Assembly (NCBI GenBank): GCA_963747695.1
Contig: CAVVFV010000010.1
Span: 261,618 to 325,617 of the forward strand
Length of the DNA stretch: 64,000 nucleotides
Reading direction: 5' to 3'
Source of the DNA: Candidatus Falkowbacteria bacterium
GTDB lineage: Bacteria > Patescibacteriota > Patescibacteriia > Patescibacteriales > WJLG01
In this document: positions 3,437-63,687 of the stretch, piece by piece
How the letters are laid out: the number at the start of each line of letters is the position of its first letter
How positions within the stretch are numbered: the first letter of the stretch is position 1
The notes under the pieces: model-generated
The model's input: only the letters and a program-made list of their open reading frames with translations
Told to the model about the DNA's origin: nothing
Database searches by the model: none
Made by a program: the position numbers and the translations under genes

Positions 3437-4438
3437 TTACTTCAATATTGTTTCACCGCATTTGGGACATTTACCATTCTTATCAAATCGTCTAACTTGA
3501 TAGTAGATCCGTTCAATCGCCAGCTCGCCACAATTGGGGCAATAGGTATTATCCTGATAGCCGGACGCGTAGACAAATTTCAACCCGGCGTCTTTGCCGA
3601 TTTGCCAGGCCTTGGCTAAAATATCGCGGCTGGTTTCCGGCAGCTGTTTTAAATTCCAGGAAATCTCCGGAGAAAAACGAGATAAGTGCCAAGGAGTATC
3701 TTTACTCAAATTAAGCGCAATGAACGCGGCGATTTCTTTGAACAGACCGAGGTCGTCGGAAAGCGTGGGGATCACCAGCGTGGTTATTTCCAGATGAACG
3801 CCGGCATTGAACAGCGTCCGCAAATTTTCTAAAACCGGCGCGACTTGCGCGTGGCAGACTTTACCGTAAAAATTATCCGTCATTGATTTCAAATCAATAT
3901 TGGCAGCATCCAGATAAGGAATAATGGCGGCCAGACATTCGTCAGTCATAAACCCGTTAGAGACCCAGACATTCTTGATTTTCTTGGCGCGGGCCAATTT
4001 CATAATATCCAGCGCGTATTCGGTGAAAATCGTCGGCTCATTATAAGTATAGGCGATCGATTGGCACTGTGCCCGCTCGGCGCTGGCGATTATTTCTTCG
4101 GGCGAAACGAAAGACAATTTGGTTTTATCCAGCTTGGATTGGGTGATTTCATAATTATGGCAATTGGCGCAGCGGAAGTTGCAGCCCAAAGTTCCCAAAG
4201 AAAAAGCCGTCGAACCGGGCAGAAAATGATAAAGCGGTTTTTTTTCGATCGGATCGATATTCAGCGCGGCCGGCCGGCCGTAAACCAGCGAATATAATTC
4301 GCCGTTGATATTTTTCCGCGCCGTGCAGATCCCCGCGTTGTCCGGCAAGATATGGCAAAAATGATGGCAGAGCCGGCAATCGACGGTCTGATCGCGCGCC
4401 GGCTGATAAAATTTTGCTTGAACAAAATTATTATCCAT
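3437..4438 (-). CDS. amrS: AmmeMemoRadiSam system radical SAM enzyme
   Basis: CNFRCANC (CxxxCxxC) cluster motif, PflA-like fold signature, C-terminal CPNC..CPKC zinc-ribbon-like tail, in the three-gene context. Confidence 0.85.
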   Translation of the reverse strand: MDNNFVQAKFYQPARDQTVDCRLCHHFCHILPDNAGICTARKNINGELYSLVYGRPAALNIDPIEKKPLYHFLPGSTAFSLGTLGCNFRCANCHNYEITQSKLDKTKLSFVSPEEIIASAERAQCQSIAYTYNEPTIFTEYALDIMKLARAKKIKNVWVSNGFMTDECLAAIIPYLDAANIDLKSMTDNFYGKVCHAQVAPVLENLRTLFNAGVHLEITTLVIPTLSDDLGLFKEIAAFIALNLSKDTPWHLSRFSPEISWNLKQLPETSRDILAKAWQIGKDAGLKFVYASGYQDNTYCPNCGELAIERIYYQVRRFDKNGKCPKCGETILK

Positions 4439-4551: not shown

Positions 4552-5199
4552 TTAAACGGCTTTGATGCCGTTGGCTAAGATTGCTAGGCCGTCTTCATTG
4601 CCGAACGGCCTTTCCGGATGGTCCATTACTCCCATGATGTTTCCCTTGTCGTTGCAAAGGGCGGCGATCGTGCCGCCATTCGGAGAAAACCCATCATAGG
4701 TCATGACCACGTTTTTCTGGCCTTCGCCGACGACCTTACCGCCGCCGTGTGCCGAATAAAATTTGAGAACCATGCCTTCCAGATCTCTGGTCCAGAGGCA
4801 ATTCGATCTCTCGACTTTGTGCAAAACCGGATGGCTGCAGAACGTTCCGCTGTCATTGGTAACGAGCGACAGACCGGAGCCGAATATTTTGGCCCGCATG
4901 CCGATCTGGAAACCGTTACAGATGAATATTCCCGGGATACCCGAGGCCAGAAATTCCGACACGAGATCTTTTACCATACTGGCGGCGATAATCCCGTGAG
5001 AGATGTAATCTCCCCCGGAAAAACCGCCCGGCCACCAGACCAGATCGCAATCGGTTACCCGGACTTTTCCGGTTATCAGATCATTCACCATGACGAGTTT
5101 GGGGATGGCGCCCAGATAACGGCAGGCGGCCATCGATTCCATCTCGCAATTAGTGCCCGGCCAATACCAGATGGCGACTTTTTTCTTGTTACGCGACAT
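4552..5199 (-). CDS. purQ: Phosphoribosylformylglycinamidine synthase, glutaminase subunit
   Basis: Class I amidotransferase with a CNGFQ nucleophile elbow and HPER motif. Overlaps purL by 11 nt. Confidence 0.85.
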   Translation of the reverse strand: MSRNKKKVAIWYWPGTNCEMESMAACRYLGAIPKLVMVNDLITGKVRVTDCDLVWWPGGFSGGDYISHGIIAASMVKDLVSEFLASGIPGIFICNGFQIGMRAKIFGSGLSLVTNDSGTFCSHPVLHKVERSNCLWTRDLEGMVLKFYSAHGGGKVVGEGQKNVVMTYDGFSPNGGTIAALCNDKGNIMGVMDHPERPFGNEDGLAILANGIKAV

Positions 5200-9180: not shown

Positions 9181-9741
9181 CTACTTAACGATAACTTTGC
9201 CGGTCATTGAGGGATGGATGGCGCAATGGTAATCATAAGTTCCGGCGGCGGTGAATTTCTGCGAGAACGAATTGCCCTGGCTTAAAGGCGCGGAATTGAA
9301 GGAAGCGGAGGCGATTTGATGCGGAACCGGATCAAGATTGGTCCAGACTACGGTGTCGCCGACTGCCACGGTAACTTGCGCCGGGTTGAAAGCAAAATTT
9401 TGAATATTGATTTGAACCTTTGCTGCAGCCGGAGGCGTAACCGGTATAGGTGCCGGGGTCGGAGCGGGAGTCGGAGTAGGTGCCGGGGCGGGCGGAGGAA
9501 CCGGAGGCGTCGCCACCGACGAAGTATTTATTCCGACCGATACCGGCGCCGAAGTCGCGGTAGGATAATTCGGCGTGGGGGTCGGCGTAGGCTGAACCGC
9601 GGCTGGCGTTGGCGGGGCAACCGTAAATCCGCCGGAATTGTCCGCCGGCGCGACATTGAGAGCGGCCGGCTTAGTCGCGCAGCTATTGGCCGCGAGCATC
9701 ACCGCCGCCAAAAGCAAGGAGAGCACTAAGAATTTTTTCAT
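9181..9741 (-). CDS. Cupredoxin (plastocyanin/amicyanin-like blue copper) lipoprotein with Pro/Thr/Ala-rich linker
   Basis: Signal peptide ending LAANSC. Type-1 copper ligand pattern H(PHQI)...C-AI-H-PS-M in the C-terminal beta-sandwich. Confidence 0.75.
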   Translation of the reverse strand: MKKFLVLSLLLAAVMLAANSCATKPAALNVAPADNSGGFTVAPPTPAAVQPTPTPTPNYPTATSAPVSVGINTSSVATPPVPPPAPAPTPTPAPTPAPIPVTPPAAAKVQINIQNFAFNPAQVTVAVGDTVVWTNLDPVPHQIASASFNSAPLSQGNSFSQKFTAAGTYDYHCAIHPSMTGKVIVK

Positions 9742-38382: not shown

Positions 38383-38429
38383 ACTTAAAGCTTACAACAA
38401 AAGGCGTTCCAATGAAACGCCCTCTGCCC

Positions 38430-38795
38430 TTGTCGGGGTACTGGGATTCGGTCACGGCTCTCGTCGGCTTCCGCCTCCTCGGCCGCGAACCCCGCCTCGC
38501 GATGCGGCTCGCCAAATGCTCGCCACATATCGCTCCGGCATTCAAATCCCATCGCGAGCCAAGCAGTTGGCTCGCTTTACCCCGACAAAAAAACGGCTTA
38601 GGCCGTTTTTCCTTGTCGGGGTACTGGGATTCGGTCACGGCTCTCGTCGGCTTCCGCCTCCTCGGCCGCGAACCCCGCCTCGCGATGCGGCTCGCCAAAT
38701 GCTCGCCACATATCGCTCCGGCATTCAAATCCCATCGCGAGCCAAGCAGTTGGCTCGCTTTACCCCGACAAAAAAACGGCTTAGGCCGTTTTTCC
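38430..38795 (-). repeat. Tandem array (2 x 183 bp, identical) of tRNA-linked GC-rich element, subfamily 1
   Basis: Period 183 bp measured at 38430, 38613 and 38796. Each unit carries tRNA-Pro acceptor strands, a T-loop copy and a terminator-like hairpin. Confidence 0.85.
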
Positions 38796-38798
38796 TTG

Positions 38799-38884
38799 TC
38801 GGGGTACTGGGATTCGAACCCAGAACCTTCCACCTACGTTCCGAGGCGGAACTTCGGTGGACGCAGCACGCACCTTCGTGAAAA
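38799..38884 (-). pseudogene. tRNA-Pro 3' half (anticodon stem 3' strand to acceptor end) with a 38-nt hairpin insertion
   Basis: Minus strand reads GGTGCGTG + TCCACC...GGTGGA hairpin + AGGTT-CTGGG-TTCGAAT-CCCAG-TACCCCG-A. No matching 5' half adjoins it. Confidence 0.7.
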
Positions 38885-38961
38885 TGGTCGGGGTACTGGG
38901 ACTCGAACCCAGAACCTCACGCACCCGAAGCGTGCGCCATAGCCAATTAGGCCATACCCCG
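38885..38961 (-). tRNA. tRNA-Pro(CGG), CCA encoded
   Basis: Acceptor CGGGGTA/TACCCCG, anticodon arm CACGC-TTCGGGT-GCGTG, T arm CTGGG-TTCGAGT-CCCAG, A73, CCA. Confidence 0.9.
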
Positions 38962-39028
38962 ACCATTTTCGCGAATTTAAAAAATAATGTAAGCACCTTT
39001 ACCCGCCGAAGCGATTAGCGAAGGCGGG

Positions 39029-39064
39029 CGAAGCGTGCGCCATAGCCAATTAGGCCATACCCCG
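39029..39064 (-). pseudogene. tRNA-Pro 5' fragment (first 36 nt)
   Basis: 36/36 identical to 38926-38961. It then diverges into the hairpin CCCGCC...GGCGGG. Confidence 0.75.
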
Positions 39065-39455: not shown

Positions 39456-39501
39456 CTCTCATCGTCTTGTTTGCTCGTCCGCCTTGGGCGGAGGAAGCAA
39501 A

Positions 39502-40351: not shown

Positions 40352-40476
40352 TGTGGACAATACTGGGCTCGGTCACAGCTCTCGCTCGCTTCCGCTCGCT
40401 CGGCCGCGACCCCGCCTCGCCGTCTTGCTCGCCAAATAGCTCGCAAGACATGGCTCCGGCATTCGAGCCCTGCCCC
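40352..40476 (-). repeat. tRNA-linked GC-rich element, subfamily 1 (solo copy belonging to tRNA-Val)
   Basis: Its first 21 nt (TTGTGGACAATACTGGGCTCG) equal the tRNA-Val 3' end at 40511-40531. The core is collinear with the 183-bp units. It ends in GGCATTCGAGCCC, an inverted tRNA-Val T loop. Confidence 0.8.
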
Positions 40477-40607: not shown

Positions 40608-40670
40608 TGTCGGGGTACTGGCCCCGCCAGCCGGCGGGGTCTCCGCTTCGCTCCGAGAATCTCACCACTC
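40608..40670 (-). repeat. Degenerate element remnant ending in a tRNA-Pro-type 3' end
   Basis: TGTCGGGGTACTGG (as in the 38430 array) is followed by the GC-rich hairpin CCCCGCC-AGCC-GGCGGGG. Confidence 0.5.
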
Positions 40671-40675
40671 ACTTG

Positions 40676-40746
40676 TCGGGCTGCGCGGAATCGAACCGCG
40701 GCTACATGCACCCCATGCACGCGTACTACCATTATACGACAGCCCG
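40676..40746 (-). tRNA. tRNA-Pro(GGG)
   Basis: Acceptor CGGGCTG/CAGCCCG, anticodon arm CGTGC-ATGGGGT-GCATG, T arm CGCGG-TTCGATT-CCGCG, A73. Confidence 0.85.
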
Positions 40747-40760
40747 CTATTAAGGCGCGC

Positions 40761-40806
40761 CTGTCCCGCCTTCACGGCGGGATACTACCGCTATACTATA
40801 CCCCGC
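40761..40806 (-). pseudogene. tRNA 5' fragment (GCGGGGTA acceptor plus D-arm-like) fused to a GC hairpin
   Basis: Minus strand reads GCGGGGTATAGTATAGCGGTAGTA, then TCCCGCC-GTGAA-GGCGGGA. No T arm or 3' acceptor strand adjoins it. Confidence 0.55.
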
Positions 40807-40932
40807 CCCTCACCATTTTTCACAAAAAAATCGAACGCCTCCGTAAACTAAAAACGACCTTTTGAATAGTTTACGAAAAATGGTGAGGGGTCGTTTTTAA
40901 TACTATAAAACTTTACCAAAAAAAGCAAGAAA

Positions 40933-42154: not shown

Positions 42155-42214
42155 AGGTTTAATGATGTGTTTAATTACGCCTCAATTATAGCAGCTTTTA
42201 GATTTAAAAAACAA

Positions 42215-42814
42215 CCTGACGCAGGTCGGACTGATTCGGTCACGGCTCTCACTCGCTTCCGCCTCCTCGGCCTCGACCCCGGCTCGCGGTGCTCGGCGCC
42301 GGAATGCGCCTCGCACAACGCTGCGCCTTTCGAATCCTCTCATTTTCCATTCTAACTTAAAAGACCTGACGCAGGTCGGACTGATTCGGTCACGGCTCTC
42401 GTCGGCTTCCGCCTCCTCGGCCTCGACCCCGGCTCGCGGTGCTCGGCGCCGGAATGCGCCTCGCACAACGCTGCGCCTTTCGAATCCTCTCATTTTCCAT
42501 TCTAACTTAAAAGACCTGACGCAGGTCGGACTGATTCGGTCACGGCTCTCGTCGGCTTCCGCCTCCTCGGCCTCGACCCCGGCTCGCGGTGCTCGGCGCC
42601 GGAATGCGCCTCGCACAACGCTGCGCCTTTCGAATCCTCTCATTTTCCATTCTAACTTAAAAGACCTGACGCAGGTCGGACTGATTCGGTCACGGCTCTC
42701 GTCGGCTTCCGCCTCCTCGGCCTCGACCCCGGCTCGCGGTGCTCGGCGCCGGAATGCGCCTCGCACAACGCTGCGCCTTTCGAATCCTCTCATTTTCCAT
42801 TCTAACTTAAAAGA
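42215..42814 (-). repeat. Tandem array (4 x 150 bp) of tRNA-linked GC-rich element, subfamily 1 (tRNA-Ser copy)
   Basis: Period 150 bp measured at 42215, 42365, 42515, 42665 and 42815. Copies 2-4 are identical. A 40-nt run is identical to the 183-bp units. Each unit carries an inverted 15-nt copy of the tRNA-Ser T-loop/acceptor region. Confidence 0.85.
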
Positions 42815-42843
42815 CCTGACGCAGGTCAGGTCTTTTAAGTTAG

Positions 42844-47997: not shown

Positions 47998-49404
47998 TTA
48001 CTTCCCTGTCCGCCTTGGGCGGATGACTTCTGCCTTAAACAGATCGCCCCGTTCCTTATAATTCTTAAAACAGCCGAAACTGGCGCAGCCGGTCGAGAGC
48101 AGAACGATGTCGCCGAGTTCAGATTCTTGTTTGGCGATTCTAACAGCGTCTTTCATATTATTGACTACTCGTAACCCATAACTCGTAACCCGTAACTCTT
48201 TTTTTAACCGCTCGGACCCTTTACCTTTGAATAATATTAAAAATTTTACTCGCTTATTTATTTCTTGGGCGAATTTTTTGAAATCCGAGCCTTTGTTGGC
48301 GCCGCCGGCCAAGAGAATGATATTTTTCTTTCCCGCGAATGATTTCAAAGCGATAACGCTGACATCCGGCACCGTGGCAAAACTGTCATCAAAATAGCGC
48401 ACGCCGTTAATTTCGGCGACAAATTCCAGGCGATGCGGCAAGCCTTTGAAATTTTTCACTGTCCGAGCCACGATTATCGGCTTGATCTTCAAAATCTTAG
48501 CCACCGCAACTGCGGCGGCGATATTCTCCTTATTATGTTTGCCGATCAAATTGCTGACTAATTCCGATTTTCCGTAAACAATAACCTTTGCCGGAGTTCG
48601 GACGCCGTAATCCTTAATCTGCAAATCTTCATTGACAACTAGATAATCTTTCTTGGCCTGATGAGCGAAAATATTCGCTTTGGCGGTCCAATAATCTTTC
48701 ATCGATTTGTGATAATTCGGATTGTGCGGATCAGCTGGAGCCAGATGTTCTTTGAATAAATTAGTTACCACGGCGATGTGTGGGCTAATATCCAAATCTT
48801 CCAATTGAAAGCTGGATAATTCCAAAACAACATAATCATCCGGCTTAATTTTCTCGATAAATTCAAACGGCGCATTGCCAATATTCCCACCGAGAAAAAT
48901 ATGGCGCTTTCGTAGGAACGCAAGATTTTGCGTTCCTACCTTAAGAATTTCATAAATCAGCGACGAGGTTGTCCCCTTGCCTTTCGATCCGGTGACGCCA
49001 ATGATATTTTTCGTCGGACATAATTGAAAAAATAATTTCATCGGGCTGGATATTTCCACGCCGGCTTTCTTAGCCTTGAGCAGATTGGGATTAAAAAGCG
49101 GGTAGCCGGGCGAACGAAAAATAATGTCAAAATCCGCCAGATGCTTATCGTAATCCTTGCCGGTCATCAAATTTATCCCCGGCATTTTATTCTTCCGCGC
49201 CAATTCCTTAATCTCCAAAAACCGATCGCCCAATTCCGCCGCCGATTTCGGATCGCAAACCGTAATATGCAACCCTTGCCCCGCCGCAGTCTCCGCCGCG
49301 TGACTGCGGCGCAATAAATATTTCACCAACGCCAAATTCTCCACCCCCAACCCGAGCATGGCAATCTTCTTATTCTGCAAAAATTTTAATTTATCCTTTA
49401 TCAT
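47998..49404 (-). CDS. murD: UDP-N-acetylmuramoylalanine--D-glutamate ligase
   Basis: GVTGSKGKGTT P-loop, Mur ligase middle and C-terminal domains. Carries two repeat-derived in-frame inserts. Confidence 0.85.
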   Translation of the reverse strand: MIKDKLKFLQNKKIAMLGLGVENLALVKYLLRRSHAAETAAGQGLHITVCDPKSAAELGDRFLEIKELARKNKMPGINLMTGKDYDKHLADFDIIFRSPGYPLFNPNLLKAKKAGVEISSPMKLFFQLCPTKNIIGVTGSKGKGTTSSLIYEILKVGTQNLAFLRKRHIFLGGNIGNAPFEFIEKIKPDDYVVLELSSFQLEDLDISPHIAVVTNLFKEHLAPADPHNPNYHKSMKDYWTAKANIFAHQAKKDYLVVNEDLQIKDYGVRTPAKVIVYGKSELVSNLIGKHNKENIAAAVAVAKILKIKPIIVARTVKNFKGLPHRLEFVAEINGVRYFDDSFATVPDVSVIALKSFAGKKNIILLAGGANKGSDFKKFAQEINKRVKFLILFKGKGSERLKKELRVTSYGLRVVNNMKDAVRIAKQESELGDIVLLSTGCASFGCFKNYKERGDLFKAEVIRPRRTGK

Positions 49405-55836: not shown

Positions 55837-55886
55837 ATTTTAAAAAGATGTTTGTCCACGACAAAGGTCAGATTGAAAAAAATATG

Positions 55887-55924
55887 TGGACCAGAGGAGG
55901 TTCGAACTCCTTACCTCCGCGTTG
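55887..55924 (-). pseudogene. tRNA-Ala-like 3' fragment (anticodon stem 3' strand to acceptor end)
   Basis: Minus strand reads CAA-CGCGG-AGGTA-AGGAG-TTCGAAC-CTCCT-CTGGTCC-A. It pairs with the 5' fragment at 56136-56156, including G3:U70. Confidence 0.65.
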
Positions 55925-55939
55925 TCCCGCACCTTTTTG

Positions 55940-56011
55940 TGGAGATAAGGAGACTCGAACTCCTGACCCTCGCGTTGCAAACGCGATGCTCTACCACTGA
56001 GCTATATCCCC
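55940..56011 (-). tRNA. tRNA-Ala(TGC)
   Basis: Acceptor GGGGATA/TATCTCC with G3:U70, anticodon arm TCGCG-TTTGCAA-CGCGA, T arm AGGAG-TTCGAGT-CTCCT, A73. Confidence 0.9.
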
Positions 56012-56135: not shown

Positions 56136-56156
56136 TACCAACTGAGCTACTGGCCC
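56136..56156 (-). pseudogene. tRNA-Ala-like 5' fragment (acceptor plus D stem/loop)
   Basis: Minus strand reads GGGCCAG-TA-GCTC-AGTTGGTA, then diverges into TCCCGCCCCAG. Confidence 0.6.
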
Positions 56157-61647: not shown

Positions 61648-61974
61648 ATGATCTCCTTTGAAATTGGGTTTAGGTACAAACTATTAAAATAATAGCAATT
61701 TTAACTTAGCATAATTAATGCTAATTGTCAACTATACCCCTGCATGATATCTCAATCTTCATCTTATTAATGATTCCCCCATATAATTAAGCACGGGCAA
61801 TCAAACATCTATCAAATCTCGTCGAAGCTAGAGCGAGATTATGCGATCCCTGCCTACCGGCAGGCAGACGCCACTCGCCAGTAGCCGAGGCGGCCATGGC
61901 TTCCTCCCAAGGCGGACAAGCTGGCGGCTTTCACATAAAAAAATTCGCATTATCTAAATTCGTATCATTCGTAG

Positions 61975-62010: not shown

Positions 62011-62707
62011 TAAAAAAATAATTAAATAGGCCTAGTTCTGAGCCCCGACCTTAAAATATAAATTGTTTATTACTCTACCTTATTCCAATTTATTTTTCAA
62101 GGCTGGATAATCTTACTATCGACTTAGGTAAGATCGGCCTTCTATCCATCTTTGTAGAACCTGAATAAACTTGAGAACATCAGATCCTGCTATTTTTTTA
62201 TTTTTGTTTTTGCGTCGTGTCGATTCCGACAAGTTAAGACGAATAGAAAGCAAAGAAATTTCTCCTAGTATTTTTTCTAAGGGAGATTTCTCTTGACTCG
62301 GTTTTCAAAGATCAGGAAAGGACTATAAATCTCGTTAAGGAACCATATTATTGTCTATTAATATAATACCATATCTAAAATTGCACGTCAATAATAAGTC
62401 AAAAACATCGCGTTACCGCTACTTAATTATCTAAAATTAGCAAAAAAGCTGTATACAATTTGTATACAACTTTTAAGTTATGCACTGCTTTAGTCCACTC
62501 TGGCGTAGACTAAAGTCGGATACTTATGCACTCAAAACACAGGTTATCCACAGTTTCCTTCATCTTTAGTACACTCTAAAGTGGACTTAAATATCATCGT
62601 TTTAGCCTCATTTTCGAATACAAAAGTCCACTTTATAGTGGACTTTAGATGCATGAATAAATTATTCATTCAGGAATAAAAAACCTTAAATCGTAATAAG
62701 ATGGATC

Positions 62708-62829
62708 GCTCTGGGTAATCCCGCGGCAGTCTCGGGATGCCGACTTTGCGTCGGCAGAATCTCCGCTACATCGGCCCCTGGCCGTGAGCGGATCCGCGCA
62801 CGCCTACGGCGACTTCGCGGAGAACTCAC
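62708..62829 (-). repeat. tRNA-linked GC-rich element, subfamily 2 (tRNA-Cys copy)
   Basis: The minus strand starts GTGAGTTC (like the tRNA-Cys T stem plus loop) and ends GATTACCCAGAGC (like the tRNA-Cys 3' end GATTCTCACCCAGACC). The start of the core, CCGCGGCAGTC, matches the Arg-linked element. Confidence 0.6.
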
Positions 62830-62862
62830 AAAAAAACAGCCAGCTATAAAATAGCTGCTGTC
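62830..62862 (-). terminator. Intrinsic terminator after tRNA-Cys
   Basis: Minus strand reads CAGCAGCTAT-TTTA-TAGCTGGCTG followed by TTTTTTT. Confidence 0.6.
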
Positions 62863-62869
62863 CAGTTTG

Positions 62870-62940
62870 AGGTCTGGGTGAGAATCGAACTCACGATAAG
62901 GGTTTTGCAGACCCTTGCCTTACCACTTGGCGACCAGACC
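62870..62940 (-). tRNA. tRNA-Cys(GCA)
   Basis: Acceptor GGTCTGG/CCAGACC, anticodon arm AGGGT-CTGCAAA-ACCCT, T arm GTGAG-TTCGATT-CTCAC, U73. Confidence 0.9.
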
Positions 62941-63096
62941 AAATCAGAAACTTGAAATTGGAAATGAGTAAATCCAATTTTCTTAGAATTAGCTGCAACG
63001 ACTTTTTTCCTCCTTAGCTTGCTTTAATATACCAAACCGTTAAAACAAAAACAAGGGATTGCCCTTGCCTTTGTTGAAATTTTTTTATATCAAATG

Positions 63097-63687
63097 TTAT
63101 TCCAGTACTTCCATTTTGGCAACCTTAACGCCGAAACTTTTCGCATCAGCGCGGCTCAACATCCAAACATCGGCATGCTCTGATCCGTAGCGGGCATTCA
63201 TCCGGTCTCTGACCACAAAAACTCTGTCTCCGAAAAGCTCGGGGAATCTGACCTTGGTTCCCATCTTAATGCCATTTATAGCCACAGTATCTTCCTGAGC
63301 ATGCTTGCATAAATCAAACCCGTTGGCGGTTACACAGGGCGTCTGGTCGGTCTGGCCGATATCAGAATTATACGCGGTAATTACCGCGGTAACCGTATAT
63401 TTAGCCTCCAGGCCCTTGTTTTGGGGCAAATGGCTGCTTTCAGACTGCTCGCTGCCATCAATCATTACCTGGGGATTAAGGATATCAATTATGCTAAACC
63501 CTTGATTTTCCGGCGCCAATTGATAATTAGTAATATTACCCGAACTAATGCTGGGATTTTCCGTATCAGCAAAAGTCGGAACCGGGAATAGGATGAAATT
63601 AGCTAACATAAGCAAGGAAATTAAGAGAAGTAATCTCTCGATTAGCTTGTTTTGGGCTAATTTTACATATTGTCTAAAATTGTTCAT
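63097..63687 (-). CDS. 3D-domain (MltA/YuiC-like) cell-wall protein
   Basis: N-terminal TM/signal. C-terminal TAYNSDIGQTDQTPCVTANG...VAINGIKMGTKVRF...VVRDRMN pattern of 3D domains. Confidence 0.7.
   Translation of the reverse strand: MNNFRQYVKLAQNKLIERLLLLISLLMLANFILFPVPTFADTENPSISSGNITNYQLAPENQGFSIIDILNPQVMIDGSEQSESSHLPQNKGLEAKYTVTAVITAYNSDIGQTDQTPCVTANGFDLCKHAQEDTVAINGIKMGTKVRFPELFGDRVFVVRDRMNARYGSEHADVWMLSRADAKSFGVKVAKMEVLE

Follow-up and report, generated by a model that had tools for sequence, protein, structure and literature searches.

The window analyzed here is a 64,000-nt stretch of the Candidatus Falkowbacteria assembly GCA_963747695.1 (contig CAVVFV010000010.1, positions 261,618 to 325,617), and the element in question is a split copy of the 3' part of a tRNA-Cys gene on its minus strand, at positions 62708-62829. 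Coordinates below refer to the window unless a related locus, designated by L and a number, is named. ARAGORN found 11 tRNA genes in the window, every one on the minus strand. One of them, an intact tRNA-Cys(GCA) at 62869-62940 (-), scored 65.5 bits with the Rfam tRNA model and was identical in sequence to the tRNA-Cys of locus L028. This gene is the source of the duplicated sequence and belongs to the surroundings of the relic, not to the relic itself.

An intrinsic-terminator-like hairpin followed by a T run (62831-62863 (-), terminator scan) lies between the tRNA-Cys gene and the relic. Past it comes the 8-mer GTGAGTTC (62822-62829 (-)), identical to tRNA-Cys positions 49-56, i.e., to the 5' strand of the T stem and TTC, the first three bases of the T loop. 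The relic is then interrupted by a GC-rich insert of 101 nt (62721-62821 (-)), which folded into four separate hairpins. The first two, H1 (62793-62821 (-)) and H2 (62762-62792 (-)), are the halves of a double-hairpin module that occupies 62762-62821 (-), between C56 and G57 of the relic T loop, and is one of the five copies in alignment A2 (nhmmer E = 7.7e-17 for this copy). The pentamer GATTC (62757-62761 (-)) resumes the tRNA sequence with the 3' half of the T loop (G57-U60) and the initial base of the T-stem 3' strand; it recurs at the corresponding place in the third unit of locus L024, described below. A second, nested insertion (62719-62756 (-)) follows, starting 5 nt downstream of the H1-H2 module and consisting of hairpins H3 (62738-62756) and H4 (62719-62737), both with orthologous counterparts in L024 unit 3. 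The relic closes with GATTACCCAGAGC (62708-62720 (-)), a degraded end of the T-stem 3' strand joined to the acceptor 3' strand. Compared with the tRNA end GATTCTCACCCAGACC, it has lost 3 nt and carries one substituted base; the alignment runs as GATT, a three-base gap and ACCCAGAGC, so that the tRNA 3' segment is directly repeated from the T loop onward. The initial annotation had described a tRNA-Cys, a terminator and a GC-rich split T arm, and all these parts were recovered on the minus strand where it had placed them; the identity of the 8-mer to the T-stem 5' strand and loop start, the hairpin-rich GC stretch of about 100 nt and the altered copy of the tRNA 3' end likewise proved correct.

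H1 to H4 were four independent hairpins whichever strand was folded. The 101-nt insert, which contains no ORF, had a fold z-score of -2.9 in the RNA model; the opposite strand, folded as DNA, had -4.1. The combined terminator and promoter scan predicted no promoter-like site for the element behind the tRNA-Cys terminator. At the gathering threshold, Rfam recognized only tRNAs in the whole window and in 10 related loci, and the relaxed searches of the element regions (E <= 10 or E <= 5) also returned tRNAs only, with no Intron_gpI in 62300-63100. According to both ARAGORN and Rfam, the upstream intact tRNA-Cys was the sole tRNA at the locus.

To assess the significance of the tRNA-Cys similarity, the final 28 nt of tRNA-Cys were aligned locally, with splicing allowed, to the 179 nt downstream. 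The score was 22, compared with 14.0 +/- 2.5 for 1000 dinucleotide shuffles, 10 of which reached 22, and BLAST within the window gave no significant repeat for the Cys element. On the window alone, the support against chance is hence weak, about 1% of the shuffles being as good, and it is the comparative evidence that is decisive: the copy is real beyond chance because in L024 the same insert is flanked by perfect tRNA-Cys halves.

Syntenic loci were fetched via homologues of the upstream 3D-domain protein and shared the gene order rpmH-rnpA-yidD-yidC-3D protein-tRNA-Cys, followed further on by the type IV secretion system (T4SS) pilins. The neighboring protein was 77% identical to that of the window in L024 (GCA_028707065.1), 76% in L026 and 73% in L028/L029. 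In L024, tRNA-Cys was followed by three tandem units, each composed of a terminator, GTGAGTTC, an insert and a tRNA 3' end. The T-arm halves there were perfect, GTGAGTTC before the insert and GATTCTCACCCAGACCTC after it, the break falling between C56 and G57; GATTCTCACCCAGACCTC was intact in units 1 and 2, and two of the units carried an 18-nt perfect repeat of the tRNA-Cys 3' end. The inserts differed: two 15-nt hairpins in unit 1, H1-H2 in unit 2, and H1-H2-GATTC-H3-H4 in unit 3, as in the window, with a slightly decayed end GATCACTCAGACCTC. H3-H4 was missing from units 1 and 2. Unit 3 is the orthologue of the window copy; its H4 stem was perfect, whereas that of the window copy had one broken pair. 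The sequence following the last L024 unit differed from that behind the inner units.

L026 and L028/L029 had the tRNA-Cys and a terminator without the element, i.e., empty sites. The window terminator aligned with that of L028 and had the same GACAG..CTGTC type of stem, although the two sequences were too diverged to make the match certain. It appears orthologous to the terminator after tRNA-Cys in this empty site, which argues weakly against an incoming element that carried its own tRNA 3' end and terminator. The initial annotation had viewed the copy as a displaced tRNA 3' portion interrupted in the T loop. The interruption was borne out by the L024 T-arm copy broken at C56/G57, whereas displacement by an integration event was not, given the resemblance of the terminator to its L028 counterpart and the lack of any mobile-element gene among the 40 window open reading frames (ORFs) scanned. 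In addition, a degenerate partial tRNA-Cys (GGTCTGGTCGCTGGGGTTGTAAGGTGAGTTTCTGCAAC...) was seen directly upstream of the intact tRNA-Cys in L028 (3740-3860), where the downstream element is absent; tRNA-Cys duplication and decay thus happen on the 5' side as well.

The H1-H2 module of ~60 bp was found in five copies with a mean identity of 81% (alignment A2): in the window Cys relic, in L024 units 2 and 3, and in a tRNA-Pro and a tRNA-Ser relic of locus L031. The first L031 copy (9466-9528, + strand, nhmmer 1.3e-12) interrupts a tRNA-Pro(CGG) relic at the T-loop position that is split in the Cys relic, and has Pro-specific flanks (CTGGGG.. and ..TCCCAGTACCCCGACA). The second (4884-4949, - strand, nhmmer 5e-15) is inverted and has no tRNA 3' end attached; its host is what remains of the 5' part of an old tRNA-Ser, with the D loop GGTCG^AATGG as the point of entry. 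The sequence of this D loop is TCGAAT-like and so a look-alike of the T loop. The orientation calls are safe because forward and reverse nhmmer matches, for the Cys and the other copies, were ~15 orders of magnitude apart. GCA_028707065.1 consequently holds the module at three unrelated sites, the L024 Cys T loop, the L031 Pro T loop and the L031 Ser D loop. The module was polymorphic among relatives, being present in the window and L024 and missing from the syntenic sites of L026 and L028/L029, and the Pro(CGG) site was empty in L032. Altogether, three independent insertion events were distinguished, with targets of the TTC^RA type (in the orientation of the element, GAGTTC^GATT, GGGTT^CAAAT and CCATT^CGACC). 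BLAST of the Cys element against the 64-kb window gave no second copy.

Base pairing within the module was strictly conserved. In the outer H1 stem and H2, 95 of 95 pair cells across the five copies were Watson-Crick (19/19 in every copy), two pairs were compensatory and none was G-U. Pairing free of G-U is expected of a DNA palindrome that can be read on either strand, and this pattern marks the module as such a palindrome and not as a strand-specific RNA.

The reading we favor, to which we give slightly better than even chances, is that a redundant tRNA-Cys 3' fragment was colonized by a small palindromic mobile DNA element preferring TTCRA loop sequences. The final ~25 nt of tRNA-Cys, comprising the T arm and the acceptor 3' strand, would have been present a second time past the terminator, non-functional and decaying. 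The ~60-bp H1-H2 element would have split its T loop exactly between C56 and G57, and the H3-H4 pair would have been inserted afterwards, 5 nt further on. Such modules would insert as DNA, in either orientation, into TTC^RA-type sites, that is, the T-loop core TTCGAWT and its look-alikes (T-arm context GGTTCGAATCC); they could nest within each other and may constitute a small clade-wide family of palindromic mini-elements in these Patescibacteria. Their movement would depend on a trans-acting enzyme or on recombination at the conserved loop motif. At the Cys locus, the relic would be older than the insertion and the element would serve no cellular function; the window copy, with the 3-nt deletion and the substitution in its 3' end and the H4 mismatch, is probably inert. 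Insertion into the sole working tRNA gene would presumably be lethal, which would explain why insertions were seen only in redundant tRNA-gene fragments, and such fragments are common in the clade because tRNA genes are often duplicated or replaced. The recurrence of the module in the Pro and Ser relics, together with the empty sites, argues for loop-targeted insertion at the DNA level. To this extent the T-loop-targeting mechanism put forward in the initial annotation is supported by the module in tRNA-Pro and tRNA-Ser relics and by two relatives with empty sites; its extension to a whole family of tRNA-linked elements is not, as shown below.

Several observations weigh against the colonization of a relic by a mobile palindrome. 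No integrase, transposase, Y1/RAYT (REP-associated tyrosine transposase) or reverse transcriptase was detected by Pfam in the 40 window ORFs scanned. No clear target-site duplication was seen at the three events, and the cut shifts by one base between them (TTC^GA versus TT^CAA). Only five copies, representing three independent events, are available, with a single copy in the 64-kb window. Two compensatory changes have kept the stems paired; this suggests that DNA or RNA structure is under some constraint and speaks against pure junk. Nor does this reading account for a 25-nt T-arm fragment that abuts the terminator T run. Finally, the same break in all three L024 units fits tandem amplification of one event and repeated integration equally.

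Shorter hairpins of similar composition were also dispersed. The 15-nt mini-hairpin TCCGCC-NNN-GGCGGA (also as CCCGCC-NNN-GGCGGG) was found in the window at 39478-39492 and 48009-48023 and elsewhere in L006 (4784-4813), L024 (3892-3906, in unit 1) and L031 (8601-8630 and 9476-9490). Its settings were a site upstream of tRNA-Gly, the vicinity of a gene boundary, tandem pairs in other genomes and the D loop of an old tRNA-Val (L031), and one mini-hairpin was nested in H1 of the L031 Pro copy. When perfect GC-rich hairpins were counted across the window, most of them proved to be ordinary terminators. A GC-rich intergenic stretch with no adjoining tRNA (61850-61935 (-)) contained the hairpin CTGCCTGCCGGTAGGCAGGGA, which was identical in 21/21 positions to two sites (1845-1865 and 4132-4152) of L018, an unrelated Patescibacteria contig; this suggests a widely dispersed hairpin resembling the repetitive extragenic palindromic (REP) sequences.

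The main rival, which we consider unlikely, is an integrative mini-element that rescues the gene it enters. In this scheme, a unit made of the tRNA 3' part from G57, the trailer and terminator, GTGAGTTC and the hairpins would recombine into the T loop of the live tRNA-Cys. It might do so by site-specific recombination or through the 18-nt homology of the 3' ends, restoring the gene and pushing the old 3' end downstream as at attL/attR sites, and tandem units would record successive integrations; we hold this course of events to be possible, at roughly one chance in five. Direct repeats running from G57 to or past the tRNA end are what such a process would leave, and they were found over 18 nt in two L024 units, 17 nt at the Arg-linked and 19-22 nt at the Val-linked elements of the window, 31 nt with 2 mismatches in L002 and 27 nt without mismatch in L035. 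The outermost copy was the most decayed, in the window as in L024 unit 3, as expected if the oldest end is furthest out, and the sequence behind the last unit was unlike that behind the inner ones. The T-loop crossover also matches the classic pattern reported for tyrosine integrases, in which identity extends from the crossover up to the tRNA 3' end. On the other hand, no recombinase gene was present in or near any copy, either among the scanned window ORFs or in the Pfam annotations of the genes of L024, L026, L028, L031 and L032, and a unit of 95-190 bp is far below the size of a conventional double-stranded circular intermediate. The terminator adjoining the tRNA seems orthologous to that of the empty-site L028, H1-H2 also occurs inverted in a D loop where there is no tRNA 3' end, and the Pro(CGG) relic is older than its insert. 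Microhomology recombination at a universally conserved loop would place the junctions at the same position, too.

The repeats at other tRNA genes belong to elements of different kinds. The last 17 nt of the Arg-linked element (19511-19672 (-)) repeat the tRNA-Arg 3' end without a mismatch. L035 (3797-3975) contained an orthologous, AT-richer element of the same architecture, in which 19 of 39 predicted pairs were changed on both sides and which was followed by a perfect 27-nt repeat of the tRNA end of its own lineage; in a closer relative, L034 (3357-3446), the Arg-type element was missing (empty site). The elements linked to tRNA-Pro, tRNA-Val and tRNA-Ser share a conserved core of ~105 nt with a three-way junction (38428-38816, 40353-40475 and 42214-42827 (-)), in two tandem units of 183 nt at tRNA-Pro(CGG), at tRNA-Val, and in four tandem units of 150 nt at tRNA-Ser. 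In the core sequence (...GAGGCGGGGTCGCGGCCGAGGAGGCGGAAGCCGACGAGAGCYGTGACC^GAATCC...), 8 of 28 pairs were compensatory and some G-U pairs invariant. Complementarity between the core 5' strand and the host tRNA 3' end gives a tRNA-like minihelix (16 bp in L018), and several copies had a hairpin with the invariant loop AACUGCUU. A K-turn in the core hairpin was rejected, as its sequence departs from the consensus.

Further core copies were located in Saccharibacteria and other Patescibacteria (L001 835-942, L002 718-824, L003 2361-2469, L006 100-210 and L018 7415-7541). The scan for the core motif yielded three true loci in genome contigs and two in metagenome contigs, where 16 of 18 matches were chance hits in GC-rich coding DNA; nothing real was found in the viral contigs scanned. 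In L003 (2471-2547), a second insertion lay between the T-stem 3' and acceptor 3' strands of the tRNA-Met-like end of the core element. Its hairpin loop, AAGCAGUU, and the conserved AACUGCUU loop of that core element are perfectly complementary, which could reflect a kissing interaction or an inverted copy.

Neither of these elements resembled the Cys insert. BLAST found no similarity to the Arg-linked or the Pro/Val/Ser-linked elements, local alignments, including that with the Arg-linked copy, scored no better than shuffles, and the covariance model R1 of the Pro/Val/Ser core recovered 7 window copies of the core while missing both the Cys and the Arg element. Rfam had no family for the core, Arg or Cys elements. 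The notion of one family that embraces the Cys insert has therefore to be dropped. What they share is the position after a tRNA, usually after its terminator, and a 3' junction at G57 of the repeated tRNA end: GCGGA^GATT in Cys, GTGACC^GAATCC or GTGACC^GAGCCC in Pro/Val/Ser, and GCGGA^ATTCC in Arg. The 5' junction of the Arg and Pro/Val/Ser elements is the complement of the tRNA 3' end, unlike that of Cys. Both look like structured, conserved RNAs, a judgment made because of their strong covariation and, in Pro/Val/Ser, the G-U helices as well. With ends matched to the host tRNA, the Arg-type and core elements are the more surprising and the more novel lead.

It is conceivable, though we would not expect it, that the Cys double hairpin, the Arg-type element and the three-way-junction core together represent an undescribed class of T-loop-targeting, self-rescuing mobile elements. 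Members of such a class might enter the T loop of a live tRNA with a replacement 3' end and terminator, the Cys copy being a stripped-down, decaying end state, a proposal of similarly low probability. Just as tentatively, targeting or processing could be assigned to the tRNA-like minihelix RNA, in which the 5' strand complements the 3' end of its host tRNA.

The tRNA loci of the clade are in flux, nested or replaced tRNA genes being common. At the tRNA-Pro(CGG) locus, the gene with an encoded CCA (38885-38961 (-)) lies between two partial duplicates of itself. One repeats 36 nt of the 5' half exactly and runs into a GC hairpin (39029-39064 (-)); the other is a 3' half with a 38-nt hairpin insertion in the variable region (38798-38880 (-)). 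Across this region (38798-39064 (-)), the leader and trailer of the complete tRNA-Pro(CGG) can pair over about 12 bp. The relic and the junction CCAttttcacga are common to the window and L031, and the inserts are lineage-specific: L031 has H1-H2 in the T loop, whereas the window has another hairpin, located in the variable region. The tRNA-Ser locus likewise had the same pseudo T arm (AATGGAAAA..AGGATTCGAA) with different inserts in L032 and the window. A shared relic with different inserts implies that at these two loci the fragment is older and was colonized later.

A tRNA within a tRNA was observed at 40608-40830 (-) and in L031 (8334-8527), while the ancestral tRNA-Pro(GGG) is intact in L032 (8585-8656). 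Its first 23 nt (40783-40805) and last 14 nt (40608-40621) remain in the window, as remnants do in L031, and enclose a second, different tRNA-Pro(GGG) that is complete (40675-40746), along with a GC hairpin and GC-rich filler; the tRNA-Pro gene was thus replaced inside its predecessor. In L031 (4862-5700), the 21-nt 5' end of the old tRNA-Ser with the inverted H2-H1 module in its D loop is followed, in order, by a GIY-YIG ORF (81 aa), a new tRNA-Ser(CGA), an HNH_3 ORF (105 aa) and the old 3' flank. The acceptor stem of the new gene is unlike that of the old one, and the whole looks like a nuclease-associated tRNA replacement cassette; tblastn of the GIY-YIG and HNH proteins against the window found no homologue. 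The intact tRNA-Ala(TGC) (55939-56011 (-)) is flanked by two tRNA fragments (55885-55912 and 56136-56156), one a 5' piece (GGGCCAGTAGCTCAGTTGGTA) running into the start of a GC hairpin and the other a T arm with the acceptor 3' piece (AAGGAGTTCGAACCTCCTCTGGTCCACA). The acceptor strands of the two fragments are complementary to each other, and the gene is bracketed by an 18-nt inverted repeat (GTCCCGCACCTTTTT and AAAAAGGTGCGGGAC).

Such loci bear on a second rival, somewhat more doubtful than the self-rescuing element, in which a homing-type endonuclease would cut the T-arm motif of tRNA genes and relics, and repair would proceed by conversion, short duplications and GC palindrome filler. The target specificity would then lie in the nuclease and not in the inserted DNA, an arrangement we regard as rather improbable. 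T-arm-motif cleavage has a precedent in SegB of phage T4 (PMC2330249), the GIY-YIG and HNH_3 ORFs of L031 flank a replacement tRNA-Ser inside the old tRNA-Ser, nested or replaced tRNA genes are frequent, and inserts occur in both orientations. However, the 81-aa GIY-YIG protein of L031 is a bare catalytic domain without a SegB-like DNA-binding domain, and neither ORF has a homologue in the window. Random filler would not yield the same 60-bp module three times or conserved hairpin pairing.

A functional structured RNA is less probable still. Read through from tRNA-Cys, the element would act as a processing or stability element, a decoy for T-arm enzymes, or a terminator or insulator near the probable origin described below. 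It lies straight after tRNA-Cys on the tRNA strand and folds better than shuffles (z = -2.9), its hairpin pairing is kept across lineages with 2 compensatory pairs, and other tRNA-linked elements of the same genome resemble conserved RNAs. Against this, it is missing in two close relatives (L026 and L028), the number of units (1 in the window, 3 in L024) and the content of the insert vary, and in the window copy part of the T stem and one H4 pair are gone. A terminator precedes it and no promoter-like site was predicted, one copy of the module runs opposite to the tRNA fragment around it, and there are zero G-U pairs and no Rfam match. That a GC-rich intergenic stretch resembles the tRNA-Cys ends by mere chance is favored by the 10 in 1000 shuffles that reached the spliced score and by the lack of a significant BLAST repeat. 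This reading has next to no probability and is refuted by the perfect 8-nt and 18-nt tRNA-Cys matches around the L024 insert, present in two further units as well, and by the Pro-specific flanks of the module in the Pro relic.

Other candidates were rejected in turn. ARAGORN found neither a tmRNA nor a two-piece tmRNA; a hammerhead or other ribozyme had no Rfam match and no core motifs; a retroviral-type primer-binding site would need a complement to the CCA end, and none was present. The repeats contain the trailer and terminator and are without CCA, unlike a retro-copied mature tRNA, and an archaeal split tRNA or intron does not agree with the bacterial context and the intact tRNA-Cys upstream.

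The cellular genes of the window encode TruB, a short-chain dehydrogenase, a radical SAM protein, MliC, Wzy, an M23 peptidase and the T4SS pilins, and the homologues of its proteins come from metagenome-assembled genomes of Patescibacteria, or the candidate phyla radiation (CPR). Near the Cys relic, the region 62380-62660 is a probable replication origin. It contains the sole perfect DnaA box of the window (62544-62552) and four of the five AGTCCAC copies, and a block TGTGGATAACCTGTGTTTT ... TATACAGCTTTTTTGCTAATTTTAG is strongly conserved in L024, L026 and L028, within a non-coding gap of ~1.2 kb downstream of tRNA-Cys. The rpmH-rnpA-yidD-yidC order is known from the relatives, as the window stops before rpmH-yidC.

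No part of a tRNA gene is more conserved than the T loop, and an element aimed at it would find about 45 essential landing sites per genome. In these ultra-small Patescibacteria genomes, GC-rich palindromes appear to settle in T loops, but only in spare tRNA fragments. The tRNA loci are unusually fluid, with genes nested in their predecessors, a nuclease-flanked replacement cassette and tandem relics. Split relics of this kind will confuse the annotation of tRNAs and non-coding RNAs in CPR genomes, can be used as natural markers of strain-level variation, and point to an activity (a nuclease, a transposase or microhomology recombination) aimed at the T-arm motif.

A search of the literature on tRNA-linked elements of the CPR retrieved nothing relevant. 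Among known systems, archaeal bulge-helix-bulge introns in the T loop and bacterial group I introns also place extra sequence in a tRNA loop between two tRNA halves. Here, however, the interrupted piece lacks the acceptor 5' strand, the D arm and the anticodon arm and starts at position 49 after a T run, the host is bacterial, Rfam gave no group I core, and the insert consists of four simple hairpins, the bulge-helix-bulge motif not having been searched for explicitly. The palindrome-associated transposable elements (PATEs) derived from IS200/IS605 have two subterminal hairpins, make no target duplication and insert beside a short specific sequence (..TTC), as here. Unlike them, the module has only 60 bp, and no TnpA or TnpB was found in the DNA examined.

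The scars left at attL/attR by integration in the T loop are similar in the order of an intact tRNA, inserted DNA and a tRNA 3' repeat from the T loop, the outer copy being decayed. Tandem accretion at one tRNA occurs with genomic islands. The Cys locus differs in having ~100-190 bp between the repeats and no integrase or cargo, and in the T-stem 5' strand beside the insert, which places the insert within a complete pseudo T arm; moreover, one module copy is inverted in a D loop and the terminator appears ancestral. T4 SegB is a GIY-YIG homing endonuclease encoded in a tRNA gene cluster; its 27-bp site includes 11 conserved bp that equal the T-arm motif, it cuts many tRNA genes, and it drives conversion of the tRNA region (PMC2330249). 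The L031 GIY-YIG and HNH ORFs around a replacement tRNA-Ser within the old gene recall this system, but they have no homologue at the Cys locus or in the window, the L031 protein is an 81-aa bare domain, and SegB homing proceeds without hairpin insertions.

The mitochondrial GC clusters and double hairpin elements (yeast GC42 and M-class; Allomyces), the bacterial REP sequences and bacterial interspersed mosaic elements (BIMEs) and the Rickettsia palindromic elements (RPEs) are also short (15-60 bp) GC-rich palindromes in an AT-richer genome. Like the module, they are sporadic among close relatives, occur in both orientations, nest or merge and have no coding capacity. For yeast mitochondrial GC clusters, a 'dynamic merger and shuffling' was described (PMC4478555), to which the nested TCCGCC..GGCGGA hairpins found here are comparable. 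The REP hallmark is GTAG beside the stem together with a RAYT, whereas here GTAG is inside H2 and no RAYT was found in the window. In contrast to GC clusters, REPs and RPEs, the insertions described here lie in loops of tRNA fragments (the T loop at TTC^GAWT, a look-alike D loop, and edges of the D loop and D stem), not in generic AT-rich spacers, their host is a member of the Patescibacteria, and no target-site duplication was seen. Most likely, the tRNA-Cys relic is inert and its insertions are a variation on the known GC-cluster kind, in an unusual host and at an unusual target.

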